Of a stretch of 16,387 nt of DNA, positions 1,462-16,387 are shown one piece after another. The stretch lies in IMG/VR virus record IMGVR_UViG_2711768071_000023; one strand, given 5' to 3'. This stretch comes from a virus. Its lineage: Duplodnaviria; Heunggongvirae; Uroviricota; Caudoviricetes. Every line of letters begins with the position of its first letter. Positions within the stretch are counted from its first letter, which is position 1. Below the pieces are notes generated by a model. That model had not been told where the DNA came from. It worked only from the letters and a program-made list of their open reading frames with translations, and did no database searches. A program made the position numbers and the translations under genes.

Positions 1462-1543
1462 ATATGTCCTTTTATCACCAAATTAAGATAAGGCATTGAT
1501 TTAATTAAATAATTTGCACTGCAAAAAGTGCCAAAAATCGCAA

Positions 1544-1567
1544 ATTAACTACACCATTAACTACACC
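1544..1567. repeat. Perfect tandem direct repeat ATTAACTACACC x2 in the phoQ-proximal junction
   Basis: Two adjacent identical 12-mers read directly from the sequence, followed at 1584-1600 by AACAA motifs spaced 10 bp apart. Confidence 0.6.
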
Positions 1568-1932
1568 GTTCGGTGCACTGTATGAAACAACGTGGAACAA
1601 ATAGACACAAGAAATATACAGGCGGGTCATCTTTCCAGGGGAAAGCACGCCAATTCATGAGGGGCGTTAATGTCGATATGGGGATCCCCATAACGGGGCT
1701 ACCTGGCTTTTTTTCCGGTTAAATGTCAATCAGGCTGGTGGGTTTTACATACCCTTGATCACCGTAATGATGATTCAGATCTGCACCTTTCCACCAATGG
1801 TGGAAAAGCCCACAGCAGGCCGCCCAGCCTCCCCCAATGGGGGATTGTGGAAGAATCAACGGGTTAGGCCTTAATCATCTGCGTAATCATAAGTAATCAT
1901 AATGTTCATTCATCCAGCGCAATTTTGCGTTA

Positions 1933-1956
1933 TCGGGAATATCAAACAGTTACCGC
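1933..1956. repeat. 24-bp direct repeat, copy 1 (TCGGGAATATCAAACAGTTACCGC)
   Basis: Matches 2077-2100 at 23 of 24 positions; lies in the non-coding junction 144 bp from copy 2. Confidence 0.7.
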
Positions 1957-2076
1957 GCCGACTTCCTCAAATTGAGGTTTCCGAAAATATCAGCGGGTTA
2001 GCGATTAAGCTGACCATTAATTAAACTGCGAAAATGTCGTAGTTGTGAGGGGTGTAGCCAACCCATTTTTGGACCG

Positions 2077-2100
2077 TCGGGAATATCAACCAGTTACCGC
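2077..2100. repeat. 24-bp direct repeat, copy 2 (TCGGGAATATCAACCAGTTACCGC), spans the stop codon of the terminal island gene
   Basis: One mismatch relative to 1933-1956; includes the TAA (2094-2096, minus strand) of the 97-aa ORF. Confidence 0.7.
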
Positions 2101-2387
2101 CGCAACCGCTCCGGCTTCTTCCAGTGGTAAGTAATTTTTTCTTTCTCCTGGAACATCTCCACGCGGCGACGATATGACAACAACTCCAGAACTCTGGTGC
2201 GTATATTGCGTATATCCACGCCGTTAAGCTCGATACCGTCACGGCGCATCACCTCAGCCACCACACGCGCGTAATTTTCGGCTATCACGCTGTCCGGCTG
2301 CGTGGCCTCCTGTTTGCCTGCTTCCTGGCTGATTCCGGTAACGCGGCGGATTATTTTTAGTAGTTCGGTTTCGCTCATTCTCGTCAT
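2094..2387 (-). CDS. Hypothetical small basic protein (97 aa), last gene of the packaging operon
   Basis: ATG at 2387 overlaps the terL stop as ATGA (translational coupling). Arg/Lys-rich C-terminus. No family recognised. Confidence 0.6.
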   Translation of the reverse strand: MTRMSETELLKIIRRVTGISQEAGKQEATQPDSVIAENYARVVAEVMRRDGIELNGVDIRNIRTRVLELLSYRRRVEMFQEKEKITYHWKKPERLRR

Positions 2388-4045
2388 ACCCCATCAAACG
2401 CCGCAAGCCGCTCTTTGTGGCTGTCGCTCATATCAAATGCAAATTCCTCATGCTCTGCCTGGAATGTGCCAAACGCCATCAGCGCCGCAACGCTCGGGTC
2501 TATCTTGTTGGATGATTTTTTCTTGTTCGGCTTGATATTGGCGTTCGCGTCACTCTGCATCACAACATTACTCATTGACCAGGCCAGCACCGGATCGCCA
2601 CGATGCACAATCACCTTCCGGTTAACAAAAACTTCGAACGATTTCGCCGCCGGACTGAAACGAAGGTATGTTTGCGGGAACGGCTCCACCTCAAATCCTG
2701 CCCCCTGTAGCTGCGTCCTCAGGTGCGTGGCGTTCCATGTATCGAAGCCCACCAGCCTGATATTGAAATTCTCTGCATCCGCCATGATGTCATCACGGAT
2801 ACGGTCATAATCAATGCAGTCACCCGGTGTTGTGCGTATCCAGCCCGCCTTTACCCACTGGCGATAGATGGCGCGGTTTTTATTGGCGGGGTTCTGTAGC
2901 TGAAATTCCGGCAGATAGTGACGGGAAACCAGCATAATCTTTTTACCGACCGGAAAGGCATAGCACACGCTGGAAATATCGCTGGTTGATGATAAGTCCA
3001 GCCCCGCGTAGCACTCCTGCCCGTATAAATCCGCCTCCGCGAACGTTCCGGCGCACTCCGCCCATGCACCGTTACCCATCCACGGCGTAGCCCCCTGACA
3101 CCAGATATTGAATCGCTTGGTGAGCATTTCCACCCACTGCGACGGAATACCCCGCGCTTTCTGGATGGTTGAGGCCAGTTTTTCACGATCGACGGAAACA
3201 TCGATATTGGGATTCGCCTTTATCCACATCGCCGGATCGTCAACCTCGCTTTCATCATCCAGCTCGTAAATCAGCACGAACATGGATTCGTTCACCTCTT
3301 CACCATCCAGTATCTGGCAGCAATAGTCATAGTGTTGTTTACAGGCTGAAACAACGTTGCTCCCCGATGTGGTGATGGCAAATAACAGCCCCTCCGGACG
3401 CGCCCCCATTCCCAGTTCAAGCGCGGAATAAACCCCGTTGTCAGGGTGCAGGTGATATTCATCCACAATGGCAAGACTCGGGTTTGTACCTTCAATGGTT
3501 GCCGCTTTTGCTGCCAGTGGCTTTAACAGGCTGTTGGTTTTCGGGTGTATCACCTTGTGTGCCTGAATATTTACCCGCTTTCGTAACGGTCGGGATAAAA
3601 GGCACATCTGACGCGCATCATCAAACACGATCCGCGCCTGATCACGACTCACGGCGGCGGTGTAAATATCCTGCTGCCCGTTTTCCATAACCAGAAACCA
3701 GTTAGCCAGGATAGCGGCGACCGTGGATTTGGCATTTTTTCGCGGCACTTCAATGAATGCGCTGGTGTATTTGCGCCGTCCGGTGGCCTTAACCTTAAAG
3801 CCCAGGATGCACGCAAAGGCGAACTGCTGCCACGGCTCCAGCTCAATGGGGCTACCGCGCATTGCGCCTTTTACGTGCGGACACACCCTGGAAAAGGCAA
3901 TAAACCGCTCCACGACCTCCGGATCGAACGTGTAAAGGGGGTTTTCAAGGTCAGAAAAATACCGTTTAACGGCCTGTTTCAGTCGTTTACAGGCCGTAAT
4001 TTTGCCGTTTTTTACGCCTTCTGCGTACTCATGCCAGGCGGTCAA
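2384..4045 (-). CDS. terL: Phage terminase large subunit (553 aa)
   Basis: Long ORF whose translation has terminase ATPase and nuclease domain character. Lies directly downstream of terS with a 17-nt overlap. The ORF-track start at 4045 is a TTG codon, so the exact start is uncertain. Confidence 0.88.
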   Translation of the reverse strand: MTAWHEYAEGVKNGKITACKRLKQAVKRYFSDLENPLYTFDPEVVERFIAFSRVCPHVKGAMRGSPIELEPWQQFAFACILGFKVKATGRRKYTSAFIEVPRKNAKSTVAAILANWFLVMENGQQDIYTAAVSRDQARIVFDDARQMCLLSRPLRKRVNIQAHKVIHPKTNSLLKPLAAKAATIEGTNPSLAIVDEYHLHPDNGVYSALELGMGARPEGLLFAITTSGSNVVSACKQHYDYCCQILDGEEVNESMFVLIYELDDESEVDDPAMWIKANPNIDVSVDREKLASTIQKARGIPSQWVEMLTKRFNIWCQGATPWMGNGAWAECAGTFAEADLYGQECYAGLDLSSTSDISSVCYAFPVGKKIMLVSRHYLPEFQLQNPANKNRAIYRQWVKAGWIRTTPGDCIDYDRIRDDIMADAENFNIRLVGFDTWNATHLRTQLQGAGFEVEPFPQTYLRFSPAAKSFEVFVNRKVIVHRGDPVLAWSMSNVVMQSDANANIKPNKKKSSNKIDPSVAALMAFGTFQAEHEEFAFDMSDSHKERLAAFDGV

Positions 4046-4385
4046 GCTCGTCCTCTTCCTCTGTTTCCGGTGGATTTCTGCGGCGACTTACCGGGTCAAA
4101 ACCCAGCAAAGAAGCCATTTTGATCATTATTCTTTCAGCGTCAGCCTTTGCGCTCAGGGCGGGGTTTCTGCTCTCGCTGCCCTGACTGTTAACAATGCTG
4201 AACCCGCGCGTGGCAAGGTCTTCGACGGCTTTGCGGTATATGGAGTAGTTAACACAATACAGCTCCAGATTGCTCCAGTCGGCGGGGGTAAGGTCTTCCC
4301 GTCCGGAAAGCTGGCGCGATTTTTCCTTCCACTGCCTGACCGCGATTTCATCCAGGTAAGCGGGGGCTTTTGGTGGTCTTGCCAT
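4029..4385 (-). CDS. terS: Phage terminase small subunit, P27 family (118 aa)
   Basis: Internal ATG at 4385 gives MARPPKAPAYLDE... with the conserved P27-family pattern (W..L...G.LT.AD...LE.YC..Y, C-terminal GF.P.SRRR). The 47 upstream codons of the track ORF look non-coding. Confidence 0.85.
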   Translation of the reverse strand: MARPPKAPAYLDEIAVRQWKEKSRQLSGREDLTPADWSNLELYCVNYSIYRKAVEDLATRGFSIVNSQGSESRNPALSAKADAERIMIKMASLLGFDPVSRRRNPPETEEEDELDRLA

Positions 4386-4673
4386 GTTCTTTTTTCGCCC
4401 AATTATTTTCAAAAAAATTCCCGTGCACAAAAATTTGAGGAGGCGGTCGGTGTCCGGCAGGGACGGTTTCGTCCTGAAAACCACCCCCACCCCCTCTGAC
4501 GGCCTCACCAGCGATTGCGAAAACATTCCATGACCTCGCGGTCACGGTCGGTTAATTGCTTCGCTGTGGTGCGTTCTGTGCGCCCTGTCCTGTTGGCTTT
4601 GTGCCCTGTCTCCTGTGTCTTCCATAAGTCACGCTGCCTTATCAGTCCACGTATCAGCCTGGTTTGCTCCTGT
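4386..4673. other. Candidate cos / terminase-recognition region between HNH and terS
   Basis: 288-bp gap in an otherwise overlapping operon. Contains a GC-rich run CCACCCCCACCCCC (4481-4494), short hairpin 4458-4476, and direct repeats TGTGCGCCCTGTC / TGTGCCCTGTC (4577-4589, 4600-4610). HNH-cos-terS is the usual arrangement in HK97-like cos phages. Confidence 0.35.
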
Positions 4674-5114
4674 TCAGTCATCATCGCCATACATCCAGTC
4701 GTTACGGTGTGCTGCCCGTTCTTCCTGCTCGCGATACATGCCCGCCTTACGGTTCGCTTTCGTGGCTGGATCTTCCCGTGTCGTCTTACGGTTGTGGCAC
4801 GTCTGGCACAATGCCTGGTGGTTCCACTCAGGCCAGAAGAGAACATCACCGCCGCCATTGATGGGGATGATGTGATCCACCACAAGAGCTGGCGTATAAA
4901 TCCCCTTAGCCAGACAACGCACGCATAACGGGTTTTTGCTCAGGTACAGGGCGCGGTATTTGTCCCACTGTCGGGAATACCCGCGCGCGCGGCGGTGTCC
5001 CCGTCTGGCATCCTCTGCACGCCATACAGCCCGTCTGTGCTCTTCACACTTGCCGGACTTCACGCGCTTATTACAGCCCGGCTCAGTGCATCGCCTTAAT
5101 GGTTGCCACGGCAT
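4674..5114 (-). CDS. HNH endonuclease, packaging-associated (146 aa)
   Basis: Cys-rich N-terminus (CTEPGCNKRVKSGKCEEH) and HNH core (VVDHIIPINGGGD ... NHQALCQTCHNRKT). ATG at 5114 overlaps the connector stop by 1 nt. Preceded by SD GGGGGTG. Confidence 0.85.
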   Translation of the reverse strand: MPWQPLRRCTEPGCNKRVKSGKCEEHRRAVWRAEDARRGHRRARGYSRQWDKYRALYLSKNPLCVRCLAKGIYTPALVVDHIIPINGGGDVLFWPEWNHQALCQTCHNRKTTREDPATKANRKAGMYREQEERAAHRNDWMYGDDD

Positions 5115-5416
5115 CAGTACACCCCCACATCACGATAAACCGACCAGAGCGCAGAAATAGCCATAGGCAGTTCAGACTGCTCCACTGGTGAAACTGCTTC
5201 CCTGTTCTCGTACAGGAAAGCGATGTACATCAGGCAACCAACACGCATTGCCGGGGTAAATTCCAGCCCGTCTTCAAAACGTTTCCCGATATGCTTCTGG
5301 CAGGCTTCCAGCGCCGCATCGGTATACATTTTCAGAAGTTCGCCTTCACCGGATAAATCATCATCAAGTCGAAGATGTGCCCTGACTTCATCAGGTGTAA
5401 TTCTGGCTTCACTCAT
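5114..5416 (-). CDS. gp6-like head-tail connector / DNA-packaging protein (100 aa)
   Basis: Internal ATG at 5416 with strong SD AAGGGAG. Small acidic protein with the pattern typical of gp6-like head-tail connectors. Overlaps the portal stop by 8 nt. Confidence 0.65.
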   Translation of the reverse strand: MSEARITPDEVRAHLRLDDDLSGEGELLKMYTDAALEACQKHIGKRFEDGLEFTPAMRVGCLMYIAFLYENREAVSPVEQSELPMAISALWSVYRDVGVY

Positions 5417-6623
5417 CTTTTCTCCCTTTAATTTCCACAGTCTGTTTCCATGCCTGGCTGAACTCATCACCACCTTCACGCGGCGGCATACCCTCGCGTT
5501 CGCGAGCTTCGTTCGGATTCATGATCCCGCTCTTAATCCCTTTCTCATACGTGGCATAACGTTCGGTGGGTGTGGCGCGCAGTAAATCGGCTGAATCAAA
5601 CTCAACCAGATAACGGGTACCAGGTACGGGAGAAGTCACCAGCAAAGCGGCCTTGATTTGCTGTTCGAAGTTCGCCAGCCACGGGCGCATTGTCATGGTC
5701 AGAAATGCGCGGCTCGCCTCACTGAAATTGCTGTAGGTGCTGTTGCTGTATTCCTGAAGAAAAATCGGCGACACGTTGAACATCCTGGCGATGTCTTCAA
5801 TGGAGAAGCGACGGGAGGCCAGCCATTCCGCATCCTGGTTACTCATCCCCAGCTGCCTGTAATCCATGCCCCCTTCAAGGATTGGCGTTTTTCCGGCATT
5901 TTTCGCCCCCTTGTAGCGTTCCAGTGCGTCTAATGCCTGTTTACCTTTCACGCCGTCCAGCCATTCACCTGACGTGATAATCCCTGCCGCCATCATGCCA
6001 TCTTTCATAATGCTGGCTCCGTGACGCTGTTGAGCAAGGCCAAGCCCCAGCGCCTCACGGCAAATCGTGACGGGGGAACGCCCCAGAAAGCCATCATCCG
6101 AGGCATAGCGGAGATGCAGAACTTCTTCCTGTAAATACGTGCGCACCGTTCCTGTACAGGGTTCGGTGATGGTATAGCGGTATTTGTGTGTGCCTGTGCG
6201 TTCCGGTACAACACACCCCGGCGCATAAGGATGAAGTGATTTTGGCTGCCCGTCCCGCCCCCACTCAATAACCGCATAGGCGTTACCGTTCAGCAGGCAG
6301 TGACGCATCATTGTGCGTTTAAACTGGTAAGGTGTCAGGCACGAATTAGGCTGCTCATTCAGCAGAATATCTACCGGGTGACTGTCCAGCCATTCCCGCG
6401 CCTCTCTGCCCTTATCATTGCGTACCAGATACAGGTAACACGGCATCGTGGCCACCGCCTCAGCGATGACAGAAACCGCGTTCATCACAGCAGGCAATGA
6501 TTCAGCCGTCCCGGCAGAAACATATTCTCCGGATCCGGTATTTGGTACACCAGACAACGCCAGAAAATCATCAATGGACAGGTTACGCAGATCGCTTTTT
6601 TTACGACTAAAAGGCCACCACAT
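5409..6623 (-). CDS. Phage portal protein, HK97-like (404 aa)
   Basis: Internal ATG at 6623 (MWWPFSRKKSDL...). Size and sequence character typical of HK97-family portals. Lies between protease and connector. Confidence 0.88.
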   Translation of the reverse strand: MWWPFSRKKSDLRNLSIDDFLALSGVPNTGSGEYVSAGTAESLPAVMNAVSVIAEAVATMPCYLYLVRNDKGREAREWLDSHPVDILLNEQPNSCLTPYQFKRTMMRHCLLNGNAYAVIEWGRDGQPKSLHPYAPGCVVPERTGTHKYRYTITEPCTGTVRTYLQEEVLHLRYASDDGFLGRSPVTICREALGLGLAQQRHGASIMKDGMMAAGIITSGEWLDGVKGKQALDALERYKGAKNAGKTPILEGGMDYRQLGMSNQDAEWLASRRFSIEDIARMFNVSPIFLQEYSNSTYSNFSEASRAFLTMTMRPWLANFEQQIKAALLVTSPVPGTRYLVEFDSADLLRATPTERYATYEKGIKSGIMNPNEAREREGMPPREGGDEFSQAWKQTVEIKGRKDE

Positions 6624-6624
6624 A

Positions 6625-7185
6625 TCACAACCCCGCCAGTTCAGCCCAGCGATGACGATTATTTCCTGCCGGGCGTAATTCAGGGTACTGTGCAAACAAC
6701 GAACGGTGGGCAATCTCCACGCCGGATTCGGGATAAGCAGGCATCGATGTTATCGTGATTTCACGGAGTTCTGCTGCGGTTACAGTACGCAGATACGGTT
6801 TTTGCGCGATATTCCACTCCTCGCATAATGCGCGAAAGCCAAAGCTCATTCCTGTAATATCGCCACGTTCCACCAGCGTAAGCACATCTTTTCCAAGCTG
6901 GGTATTTGGCGGTGTCAGTTCAAAACGTAGCCCGGTGTTATCCTCAGTCAGTACCAGTGAGCCGGATTTGGTACGCCCCAGCAGTTGGGTATAGTCATGC
7001 TCATACAGACAGCGCACATCATTACCTGCCGCCAGATAGTCAGCAAAAGCCCCCGGCGTGAACTGTTCGCGAAACTCGTCCCAGATAATTTCTGAAAGGC
7101 TGTTCCAGCGAACGGCATAACCCACCAGTTTTTTATCGCTGGCGGTCAGTTCAGATGTACGGATTTCAAAATCGGTGTTTTTCAT
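6625..7185 (-). CDS. Prohead protease, HK97 family (186 aa)
   Basis: Internal ATG at 7185 (MKNTDFEIRTSE...) with SD GGAG. Translation resembles HK97-type prohead proteases (GYAVRWN..., ...GMSFGF...). Stop lies immediately upstream of the portal start. Confidence 0.85.
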   Translation of the reverse strand: MKNTDFEIRTSELTASDKKLVGYAVRWNSLSEIIWDEFREQFTPGAFADYLAAGNDVRCLYEHDYTQLLGRTKSGSLVLTEDNTGLRFELTPPNTQLGKDVLTLVERGDITGMSFGFRALCEEWNIAQKPYLRTVTAAELREITITSMPAYPESGVEIAHRSLFAQYPELRPAGNNRHRWAELAGL

Positions 7186-7234
7186 CGGTGTACTCCATAA
7201 AGCTGAAAAAGGAGGCCGAAGCCCCCTTTGCTCA

Positions 7235-8380
7235 TTACTTGCCAGCCTGAATTTCCAGAATCTTGATGGCGTTCGAATCCACCACACCACCGCCCAGATA
7301 TTTCTGGGTATAGATGTTAATGAATCCAGGCTCGCTGAAATCCGGACGGGTACGCGTACCGGTTTTATGGTCAACGATGAAATAACCGCGCTTAAAGTCA
7401 CCGACTGCAATCACACCGTCCGGCATAAATTCCAGATATTCAACCGGAAGCCCCAGCAGAGAATCAGGATCACCAGCCTGTAAACGATCGCGCCAGATGT
7501 AATCACCAGTGGCATTTTTCAGTTTTTGTGCGGAGGCGGCTGTATTTGAGTTCATCACCCATACAGCTTTTTTGCGGTACTTATTGCGCAGCGTAAATTT
7601 CAGGTCAATCAGCATATCGGCGCTGAGACTGCCAGTCACTTTTTTCGTCTGGAGCGTACCGAAAGGACGGGTTTTGTCATTATCCGTAGTGCGCGGGAAA
7701 GTCAGGAAACCTTTGGCTTTTTTCTCGCCATCACCGGAAACCAGATCCGTTTCTTCGGTATCAACGAAAGTGTCGCCAATTTCAGAAGATAACCAGCCCA
7801 TAATATCGACTTCGGAAAAATCGATAATTTCCTGAGTGGTTTTCGGGTAAGCGTAGATCGGATACAGGCGGATACTGACTTCATTCAGTTTTGGGGTTGC
7901 CGTCTGGTTACGTGCCGCACCTTCTTCGCCGTGTCCCACGACCGCACCCCCGGCAGAAACCAGTTGCTTAAATTCATTACTGTGAATGGTTTTAACAGTA
8001 CAGATTTTACGCATCACCGACTCATCAGAAAGCTGACGCATAATTTCTCTGTTCAGTTCCGGGATAACCGTATAACCACCATCAGCCGGGACACTGCCGG
8101 ACAGGTTGCGGGTTTCCCCGGTCAGAATGTAAGAGCGTAGTTCGTCTTTGGTGATTTTCTCTTCGACGGAAACACCTGGCTGGTTACGTTCTTCATCCGC
8201 AACAGCTTCAAGACGGGAGATTTCTGTGTCGAGGGAATCGGCTTTTGCACGCAGTTCATCAAACTGTTTGCCTTCGTCATCGTTCAGGCTGCGGTTTTCA
8301 CTGTCGGCTTTTTCCAGCAGGGATCGCATCTGGTTTTTCAGGGCGGTTTTTTGCTGGCGGAGTTCGATTAATTTCTTCAT
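7235..8380 (-). CDS. Major capsid protein, HK97 fold with N-terminal delta domain (381 aa)
   Basis: ATG at 8380. First ~100 residues are a coiled-coil-like scaffold segment (LRQQKTALKNQMRSLLEKA... LDTEISRLEAV) followed by an HK97-type capsid body. Confidence 0.9.
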   Translation of the reverse strand: MKKLIELRQQKTALKNQMRSLLEKADSENRSLNDDEGKQFDELRAKADSLDTEISRLEAVADEERNQPGVSVEEKITKDELRSYILTGETRNLSGSVPADGGYTVIPELNREIMRQLSDESVMRKICTVKTIHSNEFKQLVSAGGAVVGHGEEGAARNQTATPKLNEVSIRLYPIYAYPKTTQEIIDFSEVDIMGWLSSEIGDTFVDTEETDLVSGDGEKKAKGFLTFPRTTDNDKTRPFGTLQTKKVTGSLSADMLIDLKFTLRNKYRKKAVWVMNSNTAASAQKLKNATGDYIWRDRLQAGDPDSLLGLPVEYLEFMPDGVIAVGDFKRGYFIVDHKTGTRTRPDFSEPGFINIYTQKYLGGGVVDSNAIKILEIQAGK

Positions 8381-8573
8381 GAAGGTTTTCTCGTATTGGT
8401 TAAGATTCAGGACGTGAAACCAACACGGAGGGAGCGCCGCCCGACACTCTCGGCATCTCGCAGATCAACCCGGCATCGCGCAGGGGGTCAGGCGGCATTG
8501 TGGCGGCTCACGTCTGAGTGCCACACGCCAACATATACATAAAAATCAGTATGTAAACATCAGCCAGAATCAC

Positions 8574-8602: not shown

Positions 8603-8614
8603 AATTTACAAAAC

Positions 8615-8644: not shown

Positions 8645-8653
8645 TTTATCGCT

Positions 8654-8902: not shown

Positions 8903-9423
8903 GTATCCCCCTTTGCTGCCCGGCGCTGGCGCTTGTGCTTCTCATTCAGCACCATCAGCCGTGTTTCTGCCTCCTGCTGTTCCTGTGGTGTCACTTCCCC
9001 ACATGGCTGGCCTTTCAGATCGTAACGTGCGCCACCAGCTATCAGGGCGCGGTAATAGCGCGGAGACTGCGCATAGGATGCCAGCGTCGCACGTAATACC
9101 CCCGGCCCGAATGCCAGCCCCCTGACGGCGATATCCTGCATCAGGTCGTCGAATATCCCCACCTTAAGCGGCTTCGGTGCTTTATGGCTGAATAAGTCAG
9201 GCCACATCTCAGTGAGGCGGTTAACGCGTCGGCGGTTTTTGCGCTGCCTTTTGGTCATATGCTGCCACGGTGTCGCCCCTGTGGGCTTCTGCTGTGCGTT
9301 CTGATTGCCGGGTATCACTTTATGCGCCGATGTGGTTTTATCCTGCTCTTGCGCCGCCTGCGTCGTTTTCTGCGGCGTGCCGTAAATGCCTTTCGGCTTC
9401 CGGTTAATGGTCAGCGTTGTCAT
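8893..9423 (-). CDS. ProQ/FinO-domain RNA-binding protein (176 aa)
   Basis: C-terminal two-thirds aligns by eye with the ProQ N-terminal FinO-like domain (PLKVGIFDDL ... LRATLASYAQSPRYYRALIAGGARYDLKGQPCGEVT vs ProQ PLKIGIFQDL ... [35 protein letters not shown]). SD GGGGAAGG precedes the ATG at 9423. Confidence 0.8.
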   Translation of the reverse strand: MTTLTINRKPKGIYGTPQKTTQAAQEQDKTTSAHKVIPGNQNAQQKPTGATPWQHMTKRQRKNRRRVNRLTEMWPDLFSHKAPKPLKVGIFDDLMQDIAVRGLAFGPGVLRATLASYAQSPRYYRALIAGGARYDLKGQPCGEVTPQEQQEAETRLMVLNEKHKRQRRAAKGDTCQ

Positions 9424-9459
9424 GCCTTCCCCTGTAATTACTCTGTTCGCTGTTGTGAA

Positions 9460-9885
9460 TTAAAACGGTATGTTATCCCCGTACGGGTCATCGTGCTGGC
9501 TTGTCTGTTGTTTTGCCCTGTTCAGTGCGTCAGTGGCCTGGCCCTGTTGACCTTTTTTGCCGCCCGGTCGCGCCGTTCGCGCACTGATTACGCTGTCTGC
9601 AATAACCTGCCAGCCCTGCCGCGTTTCCCCGTTCTGGCCTGTCCACTGGCTCACCTGCATGTTACCCGCCACGCTCACCAGTTCGCCTTTGTGGTGTTTT
9701 GCCAGTGCGTCGGCCTGTCTGCCAAACGCCAGGACAGATAACCACATCGTCGCCGTTCCGTCATCTGCCTGGCTGCACGGCAGGGGAACCGCCATACTCG
9801 CCATCGCCATTTGTGTCCCTTTGCTGGTGGTCTTTAACTGCGGGTCAGCCACCAGCCGCCCGTAAGCCGCTATCTGTGCTGTCAT
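9460..9885 (-). CDS. ssb: Single-stranded DNA-binding protein (141 aa)
   Basis: OB-fold pattern comparable to bacterial SSB (GRLVADPQLK..., WLSVLAFGRQADALAKHHKGELVSVAGNMQVSQWTGQNGETR) and an acidic C-terminal tip ...DDPYGDNIPF resembling the SSB DDDIPF tail. ATGA overlap with the upstream ORF. Confidence 0.75.
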   Translation of the reverse strand: MTAQIAAYGRLVADPQLKTTSKGTQMAMASMAVPLPCSQADDGTATMWLSVLAFGRQADALAKHHKGELVSVAGNMQVSQWTGQNGETRQGWQVIADSVISARTARPGGKKGQQGQATDALNRAKQQTSQHDDPYGDNIPF

Positions 9886-10127
9886 GCTGTCTGCTCTCCG
9901 GTTTTAACGTTGATGGTTGTCACCTGTTCCGCTTCGGCAATCTCCCGTTCTGTCAGCGTGGCAAAGTTTGCTGCCGCCGTGGTCATGAATGCGCTTATCA
10001 GTTCGGGATGTGCTTTTGCGTACCCTTCTCCCGCGTTGCGGTCGATGATTTTTATCGCCACCCTCAGCCAGTGTTCTGTCAAATCAAGGGCGTGAGATTG
10101 TGGTTTTTTTGCGTGCTTCGTTGTCAC
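9882..10127 (-). CDS. Hypothetical protein (81 aa), GTG start
   Basis: Track ORF starts at a GTG (10127) preceded by SD GAGGT. Translationally coupled to ssb. No family recognised. Confidence 0.45.
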   Translation of the reverse strand: MTTKHAKKPQSHALDLTEHWLRVAIKIIDRNAGEGYAKAHPELISAFMTTAAANFATLTEREIAEAEQVTTINVKTGEQTA

Positions 10128-10178
10128 AGGCTTTACCTCACAGCAATAAAATAAAATTTTTGCATTTTAACCCTTCAC

Positions 10179-10401
10179 CTGTTCACCTTTTGAGATTTTC
10201 CCTTTTTATTCATAATGTTAAGGGGTGAACAGTTTCACAAAAACTATTCACCAACTGTTCACCACTGTTCACCCTTAAAGCTCAATAAATAATCAAAAAG
10301 GTGAACAGTGAATAGTTTGGTGAACAGTTCACAAATAACTGTTCACCCTATAATGTACTGATATAAAAGATATTTATAACAGGGTGAACAGTGGTGAACA
10401 G
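10179..10401. repeat. Iteron cluster, candidate replication origin
   Basis: Nine perfect copies of GGTGAACAG in both orientations (GGTGAACAG at 10224, 10300, 10319, 10383, 10393; CTGTTCACC at 10179, 10255, 10265, 10339) plus degenerate copies, several pairs at 10-bp phasing. An AT-rich stretch (10350-10380) is embedded. Lies immediately 3' of the primase-helicase gene. Confidence 0.75.
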
Positions 10402-10414
10402 TTATTCCATAAGT

Positions 10415-12229
10415 TTAATTTTTGCTGTCGTCATTTGTGACCGATGCACATGATGGCATACAGTCTTCTGAATCCTCTGTCAGTGTCACATTTGAACGCA
10501 AACCGTGCTTCGTTTTCCGTTTTATATACTCCCTGCCATATTCCGCCATTGCCCCCGGCATATCTTTACCGAAGCGCGTCAGTGTTACAGGTTTACCGAA
10601 TCCGTGTGCCCTCATATATGCCAGATAGGCGTGATAAAGATACCTGCGCGGACTGAACGGAATAATTTCGGCATTACCCACTAACAGACCATCACACATT
10701 ACCGACGACATGAGATAGCCACAGAAGTCCACCAGCGAATCGCCCTCGCGTTTTATCACCAGAGCTTCTTCTGATTTCTGCTGCTCATACAGCAGGCGTT
10801 TAGCTTCGTCCTGGTCAGAAAAACGAGTAAGCAGATGGCGAATCACAACCGCCAGCTCTCCTTCTATTTTTTCTGCCAGCATGGGGTCGCGCTCGTTCTC
10901 CGGTACAACCTCCGAAAAATTGAATATCACCCGACGACGTGAGATCCCCCCGCTGCGGTCACTGAATGACATGGCGTTATTGTTCACCGCCAGCACGACC
11001 GCCTGAATGCGTGTTGAGTAGGGGGCTTTATGCTTCGGGTCGATTGCCACCTTGTCACCGCCTGTAATGGCCTTAATTCCTGCGCCATCACCAGCGTAGC
11101 GGGTCATATCCGGCATGATAATCAGCGAAAAGCCAACCACTAACGCGCGTTCCCTTGCATCTTCCAGCGCCTTCATGCTTGCCGATACTGTGTTGGCCTT
11201 ACCCGCCAGCATAGTGCAAATCTCCGCCATCACGCTTTTACCACTTCCCCCTGGACCTGTTACCTCAATGAATAACTGCCAGTCGTACCGGTTCGCCAGC
11301 ACCATGAATAATGCAGCCAGCACGCGATCCGTCTTGCGGTCATTCTCTGCCACCGAGCAGCGTAACCACTTCCAGAAATTCGGCGCATGTGTTGCCAGCG
11401 TTTCCCCCTCTGCTGGTGGGCTGAAAGGTAATTCACTGGCAATTAACAACCAGTCGTTTTTGTTATGCTCCCGAAAATTACCTGTTCTGGTATCAAATAC
11501 CCCGTTACTGAATCCAATCAGGTTACGGGCTGTATTCCCCATTACAGGCAAACTTAACTTCATGGTATCGACCGCCGATTTAATGGCGTTCTGCGAATAG
11601 CTGATCTCCGCATCAATGAAAATCTGCGCCATAGCACGCTGTAACTCTTTATCCTGAATCGGCTCCCATACAACGCCGTTGTAATGGTGAACAGTGTCAG
11701 AGTCGGCATGAATCGCCAGTTCACCGCCATAATGTGCCAGGAGAACTTCGCCGCGCTGGCTTGCTCCCATCTGGTTAAGCGCCAGTGGTGCGGCGCTGTC
11801 TTCTGTTTTTTTCTTAACAGGAAGCTGAATCACCAGACCATCAGAAAGATTCTGGCGCTCACGGGCCAGATATTCGCGCCAGTTCTGCACCTCCTGACCG
11901 TGCATACCCTCAGGATAAAAATTTGCATCCTGTACGCCTGCCGCCGCCAGCTTCTGACCAATCGCCTTTATCATTACTGGCGCAAGATATCCGGCCCTGA
12001 ATATGCGCACGGATTTTCTGCCTTCCGGCACAATTTGCAGCTTATCCAGTTCGGATAACTGCTGCTCCCCAAGCCACACAGGAGGCTCATTATCTCCGGC
12101 CATACGCGCGTCATGTTCCTGCCATTGTTTTGCGTGTGACCAGGCATCACTACCCGCAAAAATAATGACTTCTGTTTCTTTGTGTTTTATGCCGCGTGAC
12201 TGCTGTTTTACGTTCGGTGCCAGTTTCAT
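10415..12229 (-). CDS. Replication initiator primase-helicase, P4-alpha/D5-like (604 aa)
   Basis: Walker A motif GPGGSGKS and downstream helicase-like region in the C-terminal half. Strong SD AGGGGGT. Position next to the iteron origin matches a pri-rep gene. Confidence 0.85.
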   Translation of the reverse strand: MKLAPNVKQQSRGIKHKETEVIIFAGSDAWSHAKQWQEHDARMAGDNEPPVWLGEQQLSELDKLQIVPEGRKSVRIFRAGYLAPVMIKAIGQKLAAAGVQDANFYPEGMHGQEVQNWREYLARERQNLSDGLVIQLPVKKKTEDSAAPLALNQMGASQRGEVLLAHYGGELAIHADSDTVHHYNGVVWEPIQDKELQRAMAQIFIDAEISYSQNAIKSAVDTMKLSLPVMGNTARNLIGFSNGVFDTRTGNFREHNKNDWLLIASELPFSPPAEGETLATHAPNFWKWLRCSVAENDRKTDRVLAALFMVLANRYDWQLFIEVTGPGGSGKSVMAEICTMLAGKANTVSASMKALEDARERALVVGFSLIIMPDMTRYAGDGAGIKAITGGDKVAIDPKHKAPYSTRIQAVVLAVNNNAMSFSDRSGGISRRRVIFNFSEVVPENERDPMLAEKIEGELAVVIRHLLTRFSDQDEAKRLLYEQQKSEEALVIKREGDSLVDFCGYLMSSVMCDGLLVGNAEIIPFSPRRYLYHAYLAYMRAHGFGKPVTLTRFGKDMPGAMAEYGREYIKRKTKHGLRSNVTLTEDSEDCMPSCASVTNDDSKN

Positions 12230-12513
12230 TTTTTACCCCCTGCGACCAGCATTTCACGAATTTTGCGGATATGACTTGCTGCACGTTTCTGATTTACGGC
12301 TTTACGATGGCCCACCAGCGTGAAATCACGCCGGAACTGATAAACAGGCATCACGCAGTCATATTCGTAGCCATCACGGCGGTAAGTGATGCGCCGTTCT
12401 GCCACGCCTTTTATCGTTACCGTGCCGCCATAGTTATCCCGGAAAATATCGCCGGGGCGGATTTCAGGCCGAGCGGGGCCGCTGGCAGTAAAGCCAGAAT
12501 TTTTCTTTTTCAT
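12226..12513 (-). CDS. Hypothetical protein (95 aa)
   Basis: ATG at 12513. Stop overlaps the primase start as ATGA. No family recognised. Confidence 0.5.
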   Translation of the reverse strand: MKKKNSGFTASGPARPEIRPGDIFRDNYGGTVTIKGVAERRITYRRDGYEYDCVMPVYQFRRDFTLVGHRKAVNQKRAASHIRKIREMLVAGGKK

Positions 12514-12519
12514 GTTTTT

Positions 12520-12738
12520 TTACTCCAGAGGCAGCTTTTTAGCGGCGAGCTCAATATCAGATGTCAGAGAAACCTGTGTATTTGCCAGGTCTAACAACAA
12601 AGAAATAAGAATTTCTTCTCTGCTATCGGATTTATCGGTGCTAAGGCTGTTCATCCACATATTGACGACTTCCCTGATTTTTTTCGCAGAGTGCAGGGCT
12701 TCAAATGCCAGGTCTTCAATATCATGTTTATTTCGCAT
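12520..12738 (-). CDS. Hypothetical small acidic protein (72 aa)
   Basis: Internal ATG at 12738 with SD GGGGG. Overlaps the upstream gene stop by 11 nt. Confidence 0.45.
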   Translation of the reverse strand: MRNKHDIEDLAFEALHSAKKIREVVNMWMNSLSTDKSDSREEILISLLLDLANTQVSLTSDIELAAKKLPLE

Positions 12739-12940
12739 AATCGCCCCCGCGTAGCTGGTCTGCACTAACACCCGATTTAGTGAGCATTTCAGAAAATCCC
12801 GCAAGAGTGCTGATAAATTCGTTTTCCATTAAACGGCACTGACATTTAACCCGGCCTTTTTCCAGATACACCAGTACGCGCCCCGTATAATCTGACGGCA
12901 CATTCAGCACTACAGGTAAGTGCGATTCATGATTATGCAT
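12728..12940 (-). CDS. Small protein, paralog B of a tandem pair (70 aa)
   Basis: SD AGGGGGTGA. Shares a motif with the adjacent 69-aa protein (TGRVLVYLEKGRVKC vs TGQLLVNVDKGRVVC). Confidence 0.55.
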   Translation of the reverse strand: MHNHESHLPVVLNVPSDYTGRVLVYLEKGRVKCQCRLMENEFISTLAGFSEMLTKSGVSADQLRGGDYAK

Positions 12941-13142
12941 GTCTCACCCCCTGAATATTCGCATTAATCATTCCGGCACGTTCTGCGAGTTCCTGTAATG
13001 ATTCCCTTGTTGCGACAATGGCTTCATCTGGCAGGTGGTAATTACACACCACGCGACCTTTATCCACATTGACCAGTAGCTGCCCGGTAAATTTCTCACG
13101 AAACTGAACGCGGTTAAGGTCGGTAAGTGACAGGTTAATCAT
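12933..13142 (-). CDS. Small protein, paralog A of a tandem pair (69 aa)
   Basis: SD AGGGGG. Paralogous to 12728-12940. 8-nt overlaps on both sides. Confidence 0.55.
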   Translation of the reverse strand: MINLSLTDLNRVQFREKFTGQLLVNVDKGRVVCNYHLPDEAIVATRESLQELAERAGMINANIQGVRHA

Positions 13143-13338
13143 GGTGTTCCCCCTGGCGAATACGGGCAGCGAATACCATCACGCAGCCATCAGGAGATTG
13201 CTGACGCGCTTCCTGTTCGCTGGTGGCCTCAATGGTAATCACGCGCGGTTGTGCCGTGCTCAGGGCGATAAAACGCCAGATGTATTTATTCAGGTTGTGC
13301 GAGTCCCGCCCTTGCGGGTGTGTGGTATGATTTCTCAT
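13135..13338 (-). CDS. Icd-like small protein (67 aa), first gene of the leftward early operon
   Basis: In-frame ATG at 13338 with SD GAGGT inside the 473-codon track ORF. Translation MRNHTTHPQGR...VITIEATSEQEARQQSPDGCVMVFAARIRQ resembles the Icd-like proteins of P4-type prophages as I recall them. Family assignment is from memory only. Confidence 0.5.
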   Translation of the reverse strand: MRNHTTHPQGRDSHNLNKYIWRFIALSTAQPRVITIEATSEQEARQQSPDGCVMVFAARIRQGEHHD

Positions 13339-13446
13339 AGCTACCTCGATACTCTCGTTATCGTTGGTGGTTAGAAGCCCCGTTACTGCTCCAACAGTGC
13401 GGGGCTTCGTCGTTTCAATTGCTGAATTGCATGTATCAGCACTTGT

Positions 13447-13500
13447 GGTATTCACATTACATTTAGGTGAATACCATTTCAAGTCTTTTTTGGTATTCAC
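13447..13500. promoter_or_regulatory. Operator-like repeats in the divergent control region
   Basis: Perfect inverted repeat GGTATTCAC-N11-GTGAATACC (13447-13475) plus a third direct copy TGGTATTCAC (13491-13500). Lies between the minus-strand Icd-like start (13338) and the plus-strand regulator start (13544). Confidence 0.5.
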
Positions 13501-13543
13501 TTTTGTATTACACTGCATCCCGTTATTAATGGGAGGTGCAAAC

Positions 13544-13849
13544 ATGTCCAGGAGTTCTGTTAACAATAAGTCACAGCAACTGAATGCCAGATTTCCACAT
13601 GAAGTAGTGAGTGGCATTGAGGCATCCCTACAGCCAGGGGAAACTAAAGCGAATTTTATAGTTACGGCTGTACGCGGTGAGATCGCCCGGCGCCAGGCAG
13701 AAGGAAGTGGAGAAAATCCCCTGGTTTCTTCGCTCGATGCACTGGCGCAGGTGGAAAAACTCGGAATCAAAGCCGCCGAGGAGATCGGGCAGCTCGTCAC
13801 TGTCGCACGTGAAGAACTCCAGCGCCGCAAGACCAAAGAACCAGAGTAA
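13544..13849 (+). CDS. Ribbon-helix-helix (Arc/MetJ-type) DNA-binding protein, candidate island repressor (101 aa)
   Basis: ATG at 13544 preceded by GGGAGGTG at 5-nt spacing. N-terminus QQLNARFPHEVVSGIEAS...ANFIVTAVRGEIARRQ fits the RHH beta-strand plus two-helix pattern. One of only two credible plus-strand genes inside the element. Confidence 0.6.
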   Translation: MSRSSVNNKSQQLNARFPHEVVSGIEASLQPGETKANFIVTAVRGEIARRQAEGSGENPLVSSLDALAQVEKLGIKAAEEIGQLVTVAREELQRRKTKEPE

Positions 13850-13906
13850 TCACCATCAGCGCCGTGGTGTAAGGTATTACGGCGCATTGCTATGCAGGAC
13901 AACACA

Positions 13907-14080
13907 ATGACCGATAAAGAATTGACCAAAACATTATCACCGGCACGGAAAAGACGGCGCAGAAAGATAGAGCATGAATCAGAAAGATTCGCGCCATGTG
14001 CTTTTGCCCTTGAGCAATTCCTTAAAGAGTACAGGGAAAAGCGCTCATTGCAGGTATGGCAACGAACTGAACCAGACTGA
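13907..14080 (+). CDS. Possible small basic protein (57 aa)
   Basis: ATG at 13907 (MTDKELTK...) in the same transcriptional direction as the RHH gene. Weak SD. No family recognised. Confidence 0.3.
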   Translation: MTDKELTKTLSPARKRRRRKIEHESERFAPCAFALEQFLKEYREKRSLQVWQRTEPD

Positions 14081-14256
14081 TTGCATTGCCCACCAGCCGC
14101 AAATGTGGCATTGTTGGCAATGCTCATGCGTTGGGGATAACGTGTAGCTTGTGTCGAGGGGCCACCGTAGCGGGTGGCCTTTGTTTTGCCCGTTATTCGG
14201 CAATTGTGGCGCTTCTCCACATGGTTGATATAATCCCACTGCTCAGATTCATTTTT

Positions 14257-14556
14257 TGCGCAGTAGGTTAATTGTTCACAAAGGCGCTCCGGCAACGGGG
14301 CGCTTTTTGTTTTTATTAGTTTGTAGAAACCTGACTCAGAGATAATGCTCATATTCTGATTGCCGTCAGGGGTGTAAGTTAAATTTACTCCCTTTTTATC
14401 ATCAAACATCTGCAACGCTCTGGCGTTAACAATATTGGTTTCACTCCCGCCAGTAAGGCCGGAAATAACCGGAATAATTTCGGCAAAATTTTGCAGATTC
14501 TGTTTTTCAGGACGAACGAAGCCCCGCCCTTGTTCGGGAGAATATCCAGTATTCAT
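14257..14556 (-). other. Possible coding segment: N-terminal ~100 codons of the 473-codon ORF, 3' end unresolved
   Basis: ATG at 14556, 52 bp downstream of alpA. Residues ~60-90 (TPDGNQNMSIISESGFYKLIKTKSAP) resemble the core of Bro-N-type domains. The frame has no stop until 13135 and runs antisense through the RHH gene and the 14284-14314 terminator. Confidence 0.3.
14284..14314 (+). terminator. Intrinsic terminator on the plus strand
   Basis: Stem GCGCTCCG / CGGGGCGC (14284-14291, 14296-14303; 7 Watson-Crick pairs plus 1 GU) with GCAA tetraloop, followed by TTTTTGTTTTT (14304-14314). Confidence 0.6.
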
Positions 14557-14608
14557 GGTTAGATCTCTGTATTAGTGGATGGGTGGCGGCTGTGTGCCGC
14601 CAGCCTGA

Positions 14609-14797
14609 TTAGTGAACTGCCTCGCAGCTGTCCTTCCATGCCAGAACTTCGGATAAAGACCAGCCAACGGAACGACCGCCCAGCTTACGCCGTGATGGGA
14701 ATTGTCCGGCTTTTTCCAGGCGGTACCGACATGAGCGGCTCAGGCCTGTAAGTTGCTGACATTCTTTTTCACGTATAAAGCGATCTGTGCTTAACAC
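14609..14797 (-). CDS. alpA: AlpA-family transcriptional regulator (62 aa), GTG start
   Basis: Translation MLSTDRFIREKECQQLTGLSRSCRYRLEKAGQFPSRRKLGGRSVGWSLSEVLAWK matches the AlpA family HTH pattern. GTG start at 14797 preceded by AAGGGGGAA. Confidence 0.8.
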   Translation of the reverse strand: MLSTDRFIREKECQQLTGLSRSCRYRLEKAGQFPSRRKLGGRSVGWSLSEVLAWKDSCEAVH

Positions 14798-15070
14798 AAT
14801 TCCCCCTTTGTTGTTTCTTAAAGAGTCATTGGGTGGATTATTGGGTTGTGTCGGATTGTGTCAGGGTGTTTGTGGAATGGCAAACACTGGCGGCGGTCGT
14901 TTTACAGAAGCAGGGGGAATGAGAATAAAAACTCTTTTAATTCATTATGATGCAAAGGCATAAAATTTTACTTTTACGCCTTTTTTACATATTTTTAAGA
15001 GTGATTCGCCAGTGTATAAAAAAACAGTACACCTATAAAAATCAAATGGTTATTACGATGGCTGATTTTT

Positions 15071-15130
15071 AACCCGTTGTTCCATTTTGTTCCTTGTTGT
15101 TCGTCGTTGTGTCTCGTTGTTTCACGTTGT
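15071..15130. repeat. Six direct GTTGT repeats at exact 10-bp phasing between int and alpA
   Basis: Consecutive 10-mers aacccGTTGT tccatTTTGT tccttGTTGT tcgtcGTTGT gtctcGTTGT ttcacGTTGT. The same motif family recurs at 14846-14862, 8575-8600 and 1585-1600. Confidence 0.65.
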
Positions 15131-15157
15131 CCGCATCCTGAAAAATCGCAAAAAAAA

Positions 15158-16387
15158 TTATATTTCTCTGGCTATTGGCAATGTGGTTACGTTTTCATGT
15201 GTTCCCGCCAGTATCCCTAACCGCTCCGTCCACATATCCAGCGCGTCACGTTTCGCATCCAGATAACGGGAATGGTTATAGACTCGTTGCATCCCTGGCA
15301 TCTGATGACCTGTAAGCTGCTCCACGACGTGAGGATCCACGCCTAAATCGTTCAGCATCGTTGTAAAGGTGCGCCGGATGTCATGCAGTGACCAGTGAGG
15401 GTGTTTTAGCCTCCTGTGCGCTAATCTGCCGTACTGCGACACGCTTGTTTCCTGTTTCACTTCCCCCAGCAATAAGCCCGTGTGCCTGTTCTGCTCCACC
15501 AGCTGCGTGACGAACGGCAGTATTGCTTCCGGTATGGGCCGGAATATTGCCACCTTCGTTTTGCTGTGTTCTTTCGGCACGGTCCAGAGCATTTCGGTAA
15601 AATCCCACTCGCTGATCTCCGATAACCTCAGTTCTACCGTCCGGCATCCGAAAACAATCAGGAGGCGGATTAGTGCGACGTAGTAAGGGGAAAATATTTT
15701 TTTGTCCAGTGCCTGCAATAATTCGCCAAGTTCTTTGGTGCTTAAGACACGCTCGCTTATATCCGGTTTTTTCCCAACGTCCGCCACACTCATATCATCA
15801 AGAACGTTGCTGATTGCATAGCGCCGCCTCCGGCAGAACTTAAGCGCCTGTTTGCACGTCTGTAGCAAGAATCCGGCAGTAACAGGCGTTCGCTTTGCCA
15901 CCTGGTCAAAACAGGCCAGCCAGTGCCGTAGCTCGCATTTATCCAGCGGCATAGCACCAATGTGCTGTATTACGTGATTATTAAGGCGCTTTTTCAGGGC
16001 GGCATAATCCACGCGGTTTTCCTTTACGTAAGACTCAAGCCAGTAGGTAAGCGCATCGCCAACCGTTACGGGCTTTAACGCTTTCTGTACGGTGTAATTC
16101 ATCTCATGACGTGGATTTTTCCCCTCAGCAAGCCAAGCGCGACACTGTGCCGCTTTTTCCCTGGCAGCTTTCAGACTCAGATCAGGATAATTTCCCAGCT
16201 TAATCCGTTCCGGTCGTGCTCCCCTTCCCGTTCCGGCCCTGTAGGTGAAATACCAGGTTAAAAGGCCGCTGGTTGAATGCCTGACGCTCAGGTTTCCACC
16301 GTCATTAAGAAAGGCTGTTTTTTGGGCGGGTGTGCCGTTGATTTTCCTCAGCTGTGTATCGCTCAGTTTGTTAAGTGCTCTGCTCAT
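15158..16387 (-). CDS. int: Tyrosine integrase, P4 type (409 aa)
   Basis: ATG is the last three bases of the window; stop TAA at 15158-15160. N-terminal arm-binding-type region (LSDTQLRK..., GLLTWYFTYRAG...) and C-terminal catalytic region with HDIRRT and a tyrosine near the C-terminus. Transcribed inward, so its att site lies beyond 16387. Confidence 0.9.
   Translation of the reverse strand: MSRALNKLSDTQLRKINGTPAQKTAFLNDGGNLSVRHSTSGLLTWYFTYRAGTGRGARPERIKLGNYPDLSLKAAREKAAQCRAWLAEGKNPRHEMNYTVQKALKPVTVGDALTYWLESYVKENRVDYAALKKRLNNHVIQHIGAMPLDKCELRHWLACFDQVAKRTPVTAGFLLQTCKQALKFCRRRRYAISNVLDDMSVADVGKKPDISERVLSTKELGELLQALDKKIFSPYYVALIRLLIVFGCRTVELRLSEISEWDFTEMLWTVPKEHSKTKVAIFRPIPEAILPFVTQLVEQNRHTGLLLGEVKQETSVSQYGRLAHRRLKHPHWSLHDIRRTFTTMLNDLGVDPHVVEQLTGHQMPGMQRVYNHSRYLDAKRDALDMWTERLGILAGTHENVTTLPIAREI

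Follow-up and report, generated by a model that had tools for sequence, protein, structure and literature searches.

The 16,387-nt stretch of DNA analysed here (IMG/VR record IMGVR_UViG_2711768071_000023, hereafter the window) very probably carries, in integrated form, a capsid-forming phage-inducible chromosomal island (cf-PICI). The island, with an estimated length of about 15.1 kb, stretches from near position 1470 to a point some 170 bp outside the window and occupies the phoQ-roxA intergenic attachment site (attB) of Escherichia coli. The window opens on the start codon of phoQ and closes on the start codon of the integrase gene. The prototype of the cf-PICIs is EcCIEDL933 of E. coli O157:H7 EDL933 (Alqurainy et al. 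2022, bioRxiv 10.1101/2022.09.08.507074; He et al. 2025, bioRxiv 10.1101/2025.02.11.637232). Read directly from the EDL933 chromosome, it lies in the same roxA-phoQ spacer. A first-pass annotation, made from the letters of the window without database searches, had taken a capsid and terminase of the element's own, with no tails, as the mark of a capsid-forming satellite, and the presence of EcCIEDL933 at the same attB with a homologous packaging operon bears this out. Gene content, gene order, size, the lack of tail and lysis genes, and a PICI-type integrase, alpA and replication backbone all match the published cf-PICI family and thereby support the assignment. By the 11-component SatelliteFinder model and the criteria of He et al. 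2025, the island has 10 of the 11 core components, all 10 of them intact in the window copy, and its estimated size falls within the family range of ~10-18 kb.

The earlier observation is therefore confirmed, and its cf-PICI interpretation is supported. This class of satellites was described only in 2022-2023, and its blind recognition from sequence was correct. The kind of element is already known: the family counts 969 members, is found in ~13% of Enterobacteriaceae genomes and has been characterised experimentally, so a specialist would not be surprised by it. The class gains a further example, intact and well delimited, at the attachment site that the prototype itself uses. The added value is modest, and lies in the modular make-up (a classical-PICI integrase-alpA arm, a different replicase and a cf-PICI packaging module), a probable cos site and a sub-lineage that lacks the adaptor gene.

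Attachment site and boundaries

The features at the phoQ end of the island are as follows.

1-1461, plus strand: phoQ, intact flanking chromosomal gene outside the island (annotated phoQ in relatives)
1460-1469: left attachment site (attL) core AAATATGTCC, which overlaps the stop codon of phoQ (aligned three ways, with the island-free K-12 site and with the right attachment site, attR, of L001)
1543-1617: arm-type repeat block, with tandem ATTAACTACACC twice at 1544-1567 (repeat search, blastn)
1914-1956 and 2058-2100: pair of 43-nt repeats at a distance of 144 bp, of which the second overlaps the end of the final gene in the operon (repeat search)

The phoQ gene is intact, as first read: its blastn match to E. 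coli K-12, at 98.2% identity, reaches as far as base 1469 and breaks off there. The island starts immediately behind the core, not at some point within the first few hundred base pairs after phoQ as had been proposed. Aligned with the island-free K-12 site, in which the phoQ-roxA spacer is 75 bp, and with the far junction of an island 97.7% similar to the window's in strain WP8-S18-ESBL-07 (L001), the window yields the core AAATATGTCC; this alignment was one that the first-pass annotation had proposed. The same core also brackets the islands of L001, O157:H7 F3113 (L002) and EDL933. The two cores of EDL933 lie 15,461 bp from each other, in agreement with the published EcCIEDL933 size of 15.4-15.5 kb, which validates the core. 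In relatives it lies 172 bp past the integrase start, and the same spacing in the window gives the estimate of ~15.1 kb, close to the 15 kb predicted earlier.

Beyond the integrase, roxA begins after ~250 bp and is followed by pepT and potABCD in L001, F3113, EDL933 and CFT073. Among the matches listed for the identical 409-aa integrase, roxA lies 249 bp upstream in five of five contigs. Because roxA follows the integrase in every relative examined, tail or lysis genes contiguous past 16387, a continuation that the earlier reading had considered, occur in none of these relatives; the window's own flank lies out of view.

A copy of the 1543-1617 repeat block, 77-83% similar, is found just outside the integrase start in relatives, and the block probably represents the arm-binding sites of the integrase. 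Separately, the 18-nt core AATATCAnCnnGTTAnCG of the 43-nt repeat occurs four times within 1852-2100, and copies of the 43-nt repeat are also present in EcCIEDL933 and in the EA2 element, the latter with a different integrase.

Head and packaging genes

Genes were called with curated profile searches (Pfam, TIGRFAM/NCBIfam, PHROG), and the core genes pass the curated family thresholds. The searches place all the genes listed by the first-pass annotation on the minus strand, in one element after phoQ. The island is read leftwards throughout, with the one exception of a plus-strand YlcI/YnfO-like gene at 13544-13849. From right to left come the integrase, AlpA, a variable stretch, small open reading frames (ORFs) with a DUF4222 gene, the primase-helicase, an 81-aa ORF and the single-strand DNA-binding protein (SSB), and then a ProQ/FinO gene and an 82-aa ORF. 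Past a hairpin terminator follows the operon for head and packaging functions, which ends in a 94-aa ORF. It is made up as follows.

7235-8380, minus strand: HK97-fold major capsid protein, 381 aa (PF05065; TIGR01554, E 3e-89)
6625-7185, minus strand: prohead serine protease (S78), 186 aa (PF04586, E 1e-44)
5409-6623, minus strand: portal protein, 404 aa (PF04860, E 2e-91)
5114-5416, minus strand: gp6-like head-tail connector, 100 aa (PF05135 and TIGR01560)
4674-5114, minus strand: HNH endonuclease, 146 aa, packaging cofactor of HK97-type cos terminases (PF01844)
4505-4690, minus strand: 61-aa protein with no known function, conserved in cf-PICIs (phrog_3173)
4386-4504, minus strand: candidate cos site, a spacer with GGGGGTGGGGGTGGTTTTCAGGAC between the 61-aa ORF and terS
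4029-4385, minus strand: small terminase TerS, P27 family, 118 aa (PF05119)
2384-4045, minus strand: large terminase TerL, 553 aa (PF03354 and PF20441)
2094-2378, minus strand: 94-aa protein, homologue of EcCIEDL933 gene 1792 (phrog_1561, E 2e-49)

TerS, portal and protease are truly shorter (118, 404 and 186 aa) than their mechanically called ORFs. In the capsid protein, ~100 N-terminal residues precede the Pfam core and form the delta domain. Its best match among solved structures is PDB 9gyi (chain B; a 385-aa 'Major head protein'; E 4e-186), which we identify with the EcCIEDL933 capsid described by He et al.; second comes the capsid of the Rhodobacter gene-transfer agent. The gp6-like connector is the sole head-tail gene in the window, and its start overlaps the portal stop. 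Mutation of gene 1792 in the prototype severely reduces transfer; the AlphaFold2 model of the 94-aa homologue is all-helical and of low confidence (pLDDT 63, from a shallow alignment).

Several observations concern the capsid gene itself. The window capsid is three residues shorter than that of EcCIEDL933 around EcCIEDL933 residues 248-252, and this length difference appears to fall in or beside the 'connector loop' (residues 227-248) proposed to set the T=4 geometry. The N-terminal motif of the mature protein is SGSVPAD in the window and STGVPAD in EcCIEDL933. The gene is also a swapped allele, with 69% amino-acid identity to its counterparts in E. coli 042 (L006) and EA2 (L007), next to a protease and a portal that are 96-98% identical.

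HK97-type cos phages have the layout HNH, small ORF, cos, terS. In the window, the 119-bp spacer at 4386-4504 has a mean column identity of 90% across five elements including EcCIEDL933, and the operon around it has a lower DNA identity, 72-84%, to the O157:H7 F3113 element. The element vB_KppS-Ant, 16.5 kb long, comes from an induced lysate; its deposited linear sequence ends in ...GGGGTGGGGGAGGTTTTCAGGAC, which aligns to the window motif ending at 4471, and the record restarts 22 nt ahead of its terS. A cos site is thus probable in the 4386-4504 spacer, and the ends of packaged DNA are expected within it, near GGTTTTCAGGAC. As for vB_KppS-Ant itself (L086, LR881103.1, deposited as an 'Escherichia phage' of 16,548 bp), it encodes an integrase, primase, capsid, protease, portal, gp9 head closure, connector, HNH, TerS and TerL. 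Its organisation is that of a cf-PICI, and it also has a 765-aa ORF after terL that is annotated as a tape-measure protein.

Absence of a tail module

Profile scans of the main ORFs and of ten long plus-strand shadow ORFs returned no tail, baseplate, tape-measure, holin or lysin family, just as the first-pass annotation had it. Head genes without tails might also be left behind if a full HK97-like prophage had been deleted and its tail and lysis modules lost. The head and packaging genes do belong to HK97-type families; however, when the packaging module was compared with 50,697 phage records by distant blastn, there were six matches, among them no full tailed phage sharing the module, which argues against such an origin, and the best of the six (vB_KppS-Ant and Pasteurella Pmp8) are themselves elements of 15-16.5 kb. 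Likewise, att cores bracket units of ~15 kb, the PICI backbone is 99.3% identical to that of the classical island EcCICFT073, and the order capsid-protease-portal-connector-HNH-TerS-TerL is that of cf-PICIs rather than that of the HK97-like prophage of E. coli 042. No tail module, lysis cassette or repressor switch stands next to the head genes in the window or in the flanks of its relatives (L001, F3113, EDL933). We therefore regard a deleted prophage, which the earlier reading had named as the finding that would overturn it, as extremely improbable.

The missing head-closure gene

The first-pass annotation had called the head and packaging set complete. All of the genes it named are present, but the head-closure gene of the prototype is not. 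Between portal and HNH, EcCIEDL933 has two head-tail genes, one for a 112-aa head-closure protein ('head-tail adaptor') and one for a 98-aa gp6-like connector; the former carries the adaptor annotation in EcCIEDL933 and is of the HK97 gp7 / SPP1 gp16 type.

This absence is one of several points that weigh against the cf-PICI reading. When four head-closure proteins were searched against the window by tblastn, the strongest match had an E of only ~0.4, and the adaptor, which together with the connector sets tail specificity (He et al., bioRxiv 10.1101/2025.02.11.637232), is one of the 11 core components. The closest full-length relative, L001 (NZ_AP022261.1; 99.4% identical over window positions 1-12520), has annotated frameshifts in its terS, portal and protease genes (10029-13182), all three of which are intact in the window copy; the frameshifts are either real decay, in which case some copies of the lineage are degenerating, or homopolymer sequencing errors in the assembly. 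The attR and the sequence past 16387 lie outside the window, and the far flank is read from relatives. For the placement of cos, the evidence is sequence conservation together with the termini of a single deposited genome. Finally, induction, replication, packaging and the identity of the helper are, for this island, predictions from the prototype.

One might accordingly suppose that the island is an immobile, decaying remnant of a cf-PICI, whose heads, lacking a head-closure protein, cannot be sealed or joined to tails, and which persists by vertical inheritance only. The missing adaptor and the three frameshifted packaging genes of L001 fit this view, as does the literature in which adaptor and connector are treated as part of an exclusive packaging module and as determinants of tail compatibility. 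Against it, the remaining packaging genes are intact and full-length when compared across the window, EA2, 042 and EDL933 copies, and their ratios of nonsynonymous to synonymous substitution (dN/dS) of 0-0.25 indicate that the absence of the head-closure gene is not decay. In addition, ~140 of 5426 complete E. coli genomes, 042, SMS-3-5 and UMNF18 among them, align in one piece across the adaptor-less junction of portal and connector, and the junction is likewise present in all of the more than 46 IMG/VR loci with a connector that matches the window's at 85% identity or above; more distant relatives mostly keep the head-closure gene, with six that lack it. The adaptor-less islands are inserted at several distinct sites, and this implies that they have kept moving horizontally. 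The published SatelliteFinder model also accepts cf-PICIs with one component fewer than the 11 ('Type B', 459 of 969) or with two fewer, and states that many such variants are functional, so the missing adaptor does not exclude the island from the family. Decay is thus improbable, and to judge from these comparisons the lack of a head-closure gene is a trait of the lineage, not local damage.

That the window copy functions is something we infer from its intact genes and from purifying selection, and homology with EcCIEDL933 suggests a likely life cycle. A helper phage of the lambdoid/HK97 type would bring about alpA expression, AlpA would lead to integrase-mediated excision at the core AAATATGTCC, and the primase-helicase and SSB would copy the circle, starting at the iterons of the origin (10179-10401). 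Small HK97-fold heads (T=4 in the prototype) would be assembled from capsid, protease and portal proteins. TerS, TerL and HNH would cleave the island DNA at a cos site, which probably lies in the 4386-4504 spacer, and fill the heads with it, and the gp6-like connector would dock tails made by the helper. For EcCIEDL933 it has been shown that induction and transfer require alpA and a helper (HK106 or HK446), that each packaging gene is needed for transfer and not for replication, and that the capsid genes of the helper are dispensable while its tail genes are essential. The EcCIEDL933 capsid measures 47.5 nm across.

How the last steps would work in an adaptor-less, widespread and selectively maintained sub-lineage, that is, how its capsids are sealed and joined to tails, is a question that these islands raise, and the cf-PICI papers we found are silent on it. 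Tentatively, and with more doubt than confidence, we suggest that a sub-lineage without its own head-closure protein (stopper) stays mobile by taking stopper as well as tail from the helper, or by sealing its heads in some other way. If true, use of a helper stopper would modify the rule that cf-PICIs steal only tails, and with it the model of stable tail-less capsids that are released.

In E. coli 042 (L006, NC_017626.1, 8519-25521), a cf-PICI sits inside terL of an HK97-like prophage, the terL fragments abutting at about residues 307-311, and this prophage has head-closure, connector and tail genes of its own. In the flanks of ~11 loci from IMG/VR (including L032, L036, L037, L039, L041-L043, L045, L046 and L070) there is a 90-100% identical prophage head-closure gene, which suggests that they share the 042-like insertion in prophage terL. 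Since these ~11 relatives would lie inside terL of a prophage that encodes its own head-closure protein, adaptor-less islands might, if the suggestion holds, be tied more closely to HK97-like helpers. The connectors of adaptor-less cf-PICIs and of the resident prophage are only 24-27% identical, too low to inform on the use of a prophage stopper.

Replication module and accessory cargo

The genes between the integrase arm and the packaging operon comprise the following.

10415-12229, minus strand: primase-helicase (pri-rep), 604 aa (D5_N, DUF5906, Pox_D5)
10179-10401: replication origin with iterons, 10 copies of GGTGAACAG in both orientations in a stretch of 39% GC
9882-10127, minus strand: 81-aa protein with no known function (phrog_1231)
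9460-9885, minus strand: SSB, 141 aa (PF00436)
8893-9423, minus strand: ProQ/FinO-domain protein, 176 aa (PF04352, E 1e-23)
8654-8902, minus strand: 82-aa protein with no known function (phrog_1957), 40% identical to a 74-aa protein of EDL933
8621-8647, minus strand: terminator-like hairpin, its stem of 11 bp free of mismatches, with a run of T behind it on the minus strand

The primase-helicase has a Walker A motif, GPGGSGKS, at residue 325, and the 10 iterons lie directly downstream of its stop codon, so that the pairing of a Walker A primase-helicase with an adjacent iteron origin, noted in the first reading, stands. Some 3.5 copies of GGTGAACAG are expected in the whole window, and the observed total was reached by none of 200 shuffles. 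A search of Rfam at E<=0.1 found no C4/CI-type or other RNA; the sole matches, two plant-miRNA models far below the gathering score, are spurious and reflect the inverted iterons of the origin.

The ProQ/FinO gene, whose product is RNA-chaperone-like, fills the variable accessory slot between SSB and capsid in which EcCIEDL933 and CFT073 have PerC; the NCBIfam FinO and ProQ matches of its 176-aa product are below cut-off. Its relatives occur in 397 of 5426 E. coli genomes, at up to six places per genome, and the classical PICI of E. coli O104:H4 (L008) also has a related gene, a spread that marks it as common PICI cargo. Our literature search returned nothing on ProQ/FinO proteins in PICIs or on their role in satellites. 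He et al. expect accessory or immune genes in the regions flanking the packaging operon (bioRxiv 10.1101/2025.02.11.637232). The hairpin at 8621-8647 parts the replication and accessory genes from that operon. PADLOC assigned no defence family to seven ORFs of the island (the 473-aa ORF treated below, ProQ/FinO, the 82-aa and a 97-aa ORF, and three small ORFs at 12520-13142). In L008 (NZ_CP031902.1, 3116-5072), the far end of the classical PICI has a gene for an AAA-family ATPase beside one for a DUF4435 protein, a pairing that may resemble the PARIS anti-phage system.

Integrase, AlpA and the variable stretch

The right-hand arm of the island holds the following.

15158-16387, minus strand: tyrosine integrase, 409 aa (PF13356, Arm-DNA-bind_3, and PF00589, Phage_integrase)
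14609-14797, minus strand: AlpA regulator, 62 aa (PF05930, E 3e-18)
14197-14556, minus strand: Bro-N-like remnant or hypothetical gene downstream of alpA (Bro-N E 0.009, weak Ant PHROG matches)
13544-13849, plus strand: YlcI/YnfO-family protein, 101 aa (NF041551, E 3e-16, above cut-off)
13135-13338, minus strand: Icd-like protein of the host cell-division inhibitor family, 67 aa (NF033153, E 2e-19; third-position substitution bias)
12520-13142, minus strand: three small ORFs, of which 12728-12940 and 12933-13142 are phrog_340 paralogues
12226-12513, minus strand: DUF4222 protein, 95 aa (PF13973)

The backbone formed by the integrase, AlpA and the primase-helicase had led to the element being called P4-like, and membership of the P4-like satellite family in the strict sense would account for the Arm-DNA-bind_3 architecture of the integrase, for AlpA and for the 'P4 family' C-terminal domain of the primase (TIGR01613, 96 bits, below the 108.7 cut-off). 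The label holds for this backbone only: Pfam, PHROG and NCBIfam scans returned no psu, delta or sid, the island has capsid, portal and terminase genes of its own, and the published classification keeps P4-like and cfPICI elements apart. Strict P4 membership is hardly credible on this evidence, and the island is better placed among the cf-PICIs.

A 473-aa ORF at 13135-14556 was considered as a novel large protein and rejected as a composite artefact. Its protein-like parts are only the Icd-like C-terminus (the last 67 codons) and the weak Bro-N piece. In its middle, the minus-strand translation is rich in Ser and Cys, and the plus-strand translation, that of the YlcI/YnfO gene which lies antisense there, is protein-like. 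Codon periodicity is absent in comparisons both from the Bro-N-like stretch at 14197-14556 and from 13341-13567; codon-phase counting alone could not tell the strands apart, since the frames share third positions. PGAP annotates DNA homologous to 13135-14556 differently across genomes. The layout of alpA, Ant/Bro, YlcI/YnfO and Icd-like genes is also found in classical PICIs, and the gene after alpA is listed by He et al. as a variable region of unknown function (bioRxiv 10.1101/2025.02.11.637232). A regulatory role for the YlcI/YnfO-like protein would be a guess.

Comparison with known systems

The literature derives the cf-PICI packaging module from HK97-type phages, and the island shares with HK97 and HK97-like prophages a capsid with delta domain, an S78 protease, a portal, a gp6-type connector and the families of an HNH-dependent P27-type terminase. 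Unlike HK97, it has no tail, lysis or lysogeny-switch genes, its genes stand in another order, and it is only ~15 kb long. The capsid geometry is T=4 in the EcCIEDL933 prototype and T=7 in HK97. With satellite P4 the island has in common an integrase with an arm-binding domain, regulation of the AlpA family and a primase-helicase with an adjacent origin; P4, however, redirects the capsid assembly of P2 via Sid, Psu and Delta and encodes no capsid, portal or terminase.

The classical, non-capsid-forming E. coli PICI EcCICFT073 resembles the island in the integration arm. Its integrase is 100% identical, the similarity of 99.3% extends over 2.57 kb of the integrase-alpA arm, and it occupies the same attB, with the same layout of alpA, YlcI/YnfO, Icd-like, DUF4222, primase and SSB genes and a 93-aa last gene beside phoQ. 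In contrast to the window island, it lacks any annotated portal, protease, connector, HNH, TerS or TerL gene, its annotated morphogenesis genes being only a 'major capsid protein' and a 'head decoration protein', and it is shorter, ~11.5 kb from roxA to phoQ. A classical PICI was rejected as a class for the window island: the model for that class forbids portal, connector/adaptor and TerL, and the window has portal, connector and TerL.

EcCIEDL933 shares with the island the attB, the att core, the order of the operon and the lack of tail and lysis genes, and at 15.46 kb it is slightly larger. Protein identity between the two is highest for the integrase (97.8%), AlpA and TerL (93.5% each) and TerS (89%), and falls through HNH (84%), portal (80%), the gene-1792 homologue (77%) and capsid (74.5%) to the protease (61%) and the connector (56%). 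The differences are the head-closure/adaptor gene, which only EcCIEDL933 has; the cargo, ProQ/FinO as against PerC; the region downstream of alpA; and the replication protein, a 604-aa D5/P4-type primase in the window and a 710-aa DUF927 protein in EcCIEDL933, which only the N-terminal 145 aa of the window primase resemble.

The packaging sub-lineage of the window is that of the single-connector cf-PICIs of E. coli 042, EA2, SMS-3-5 and UMNF18, whose annotation is generic. These share the overlap of portal and connector and likewise have no head-closure gene, and their identities to the window are 99.6-100% for TerL (100% in 042), 100% for TerS, 97.5-97.8% for portal and 89-95% for the connector. 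Their integrases and sites are different (fis-yhdJ in EA2, inside a prophage terL in 042), and so are their replication proteins and cargo. Modular exchange has already been described for PICIs and cfPICIs, and by sequence comparison the window island is a mosaic of this kind, in which an integrase-alpA arm of classical-PICI type is joined to a D5-type replication module and to the packaging module of a cf-PICI sub-lineage without the head-closure gene.

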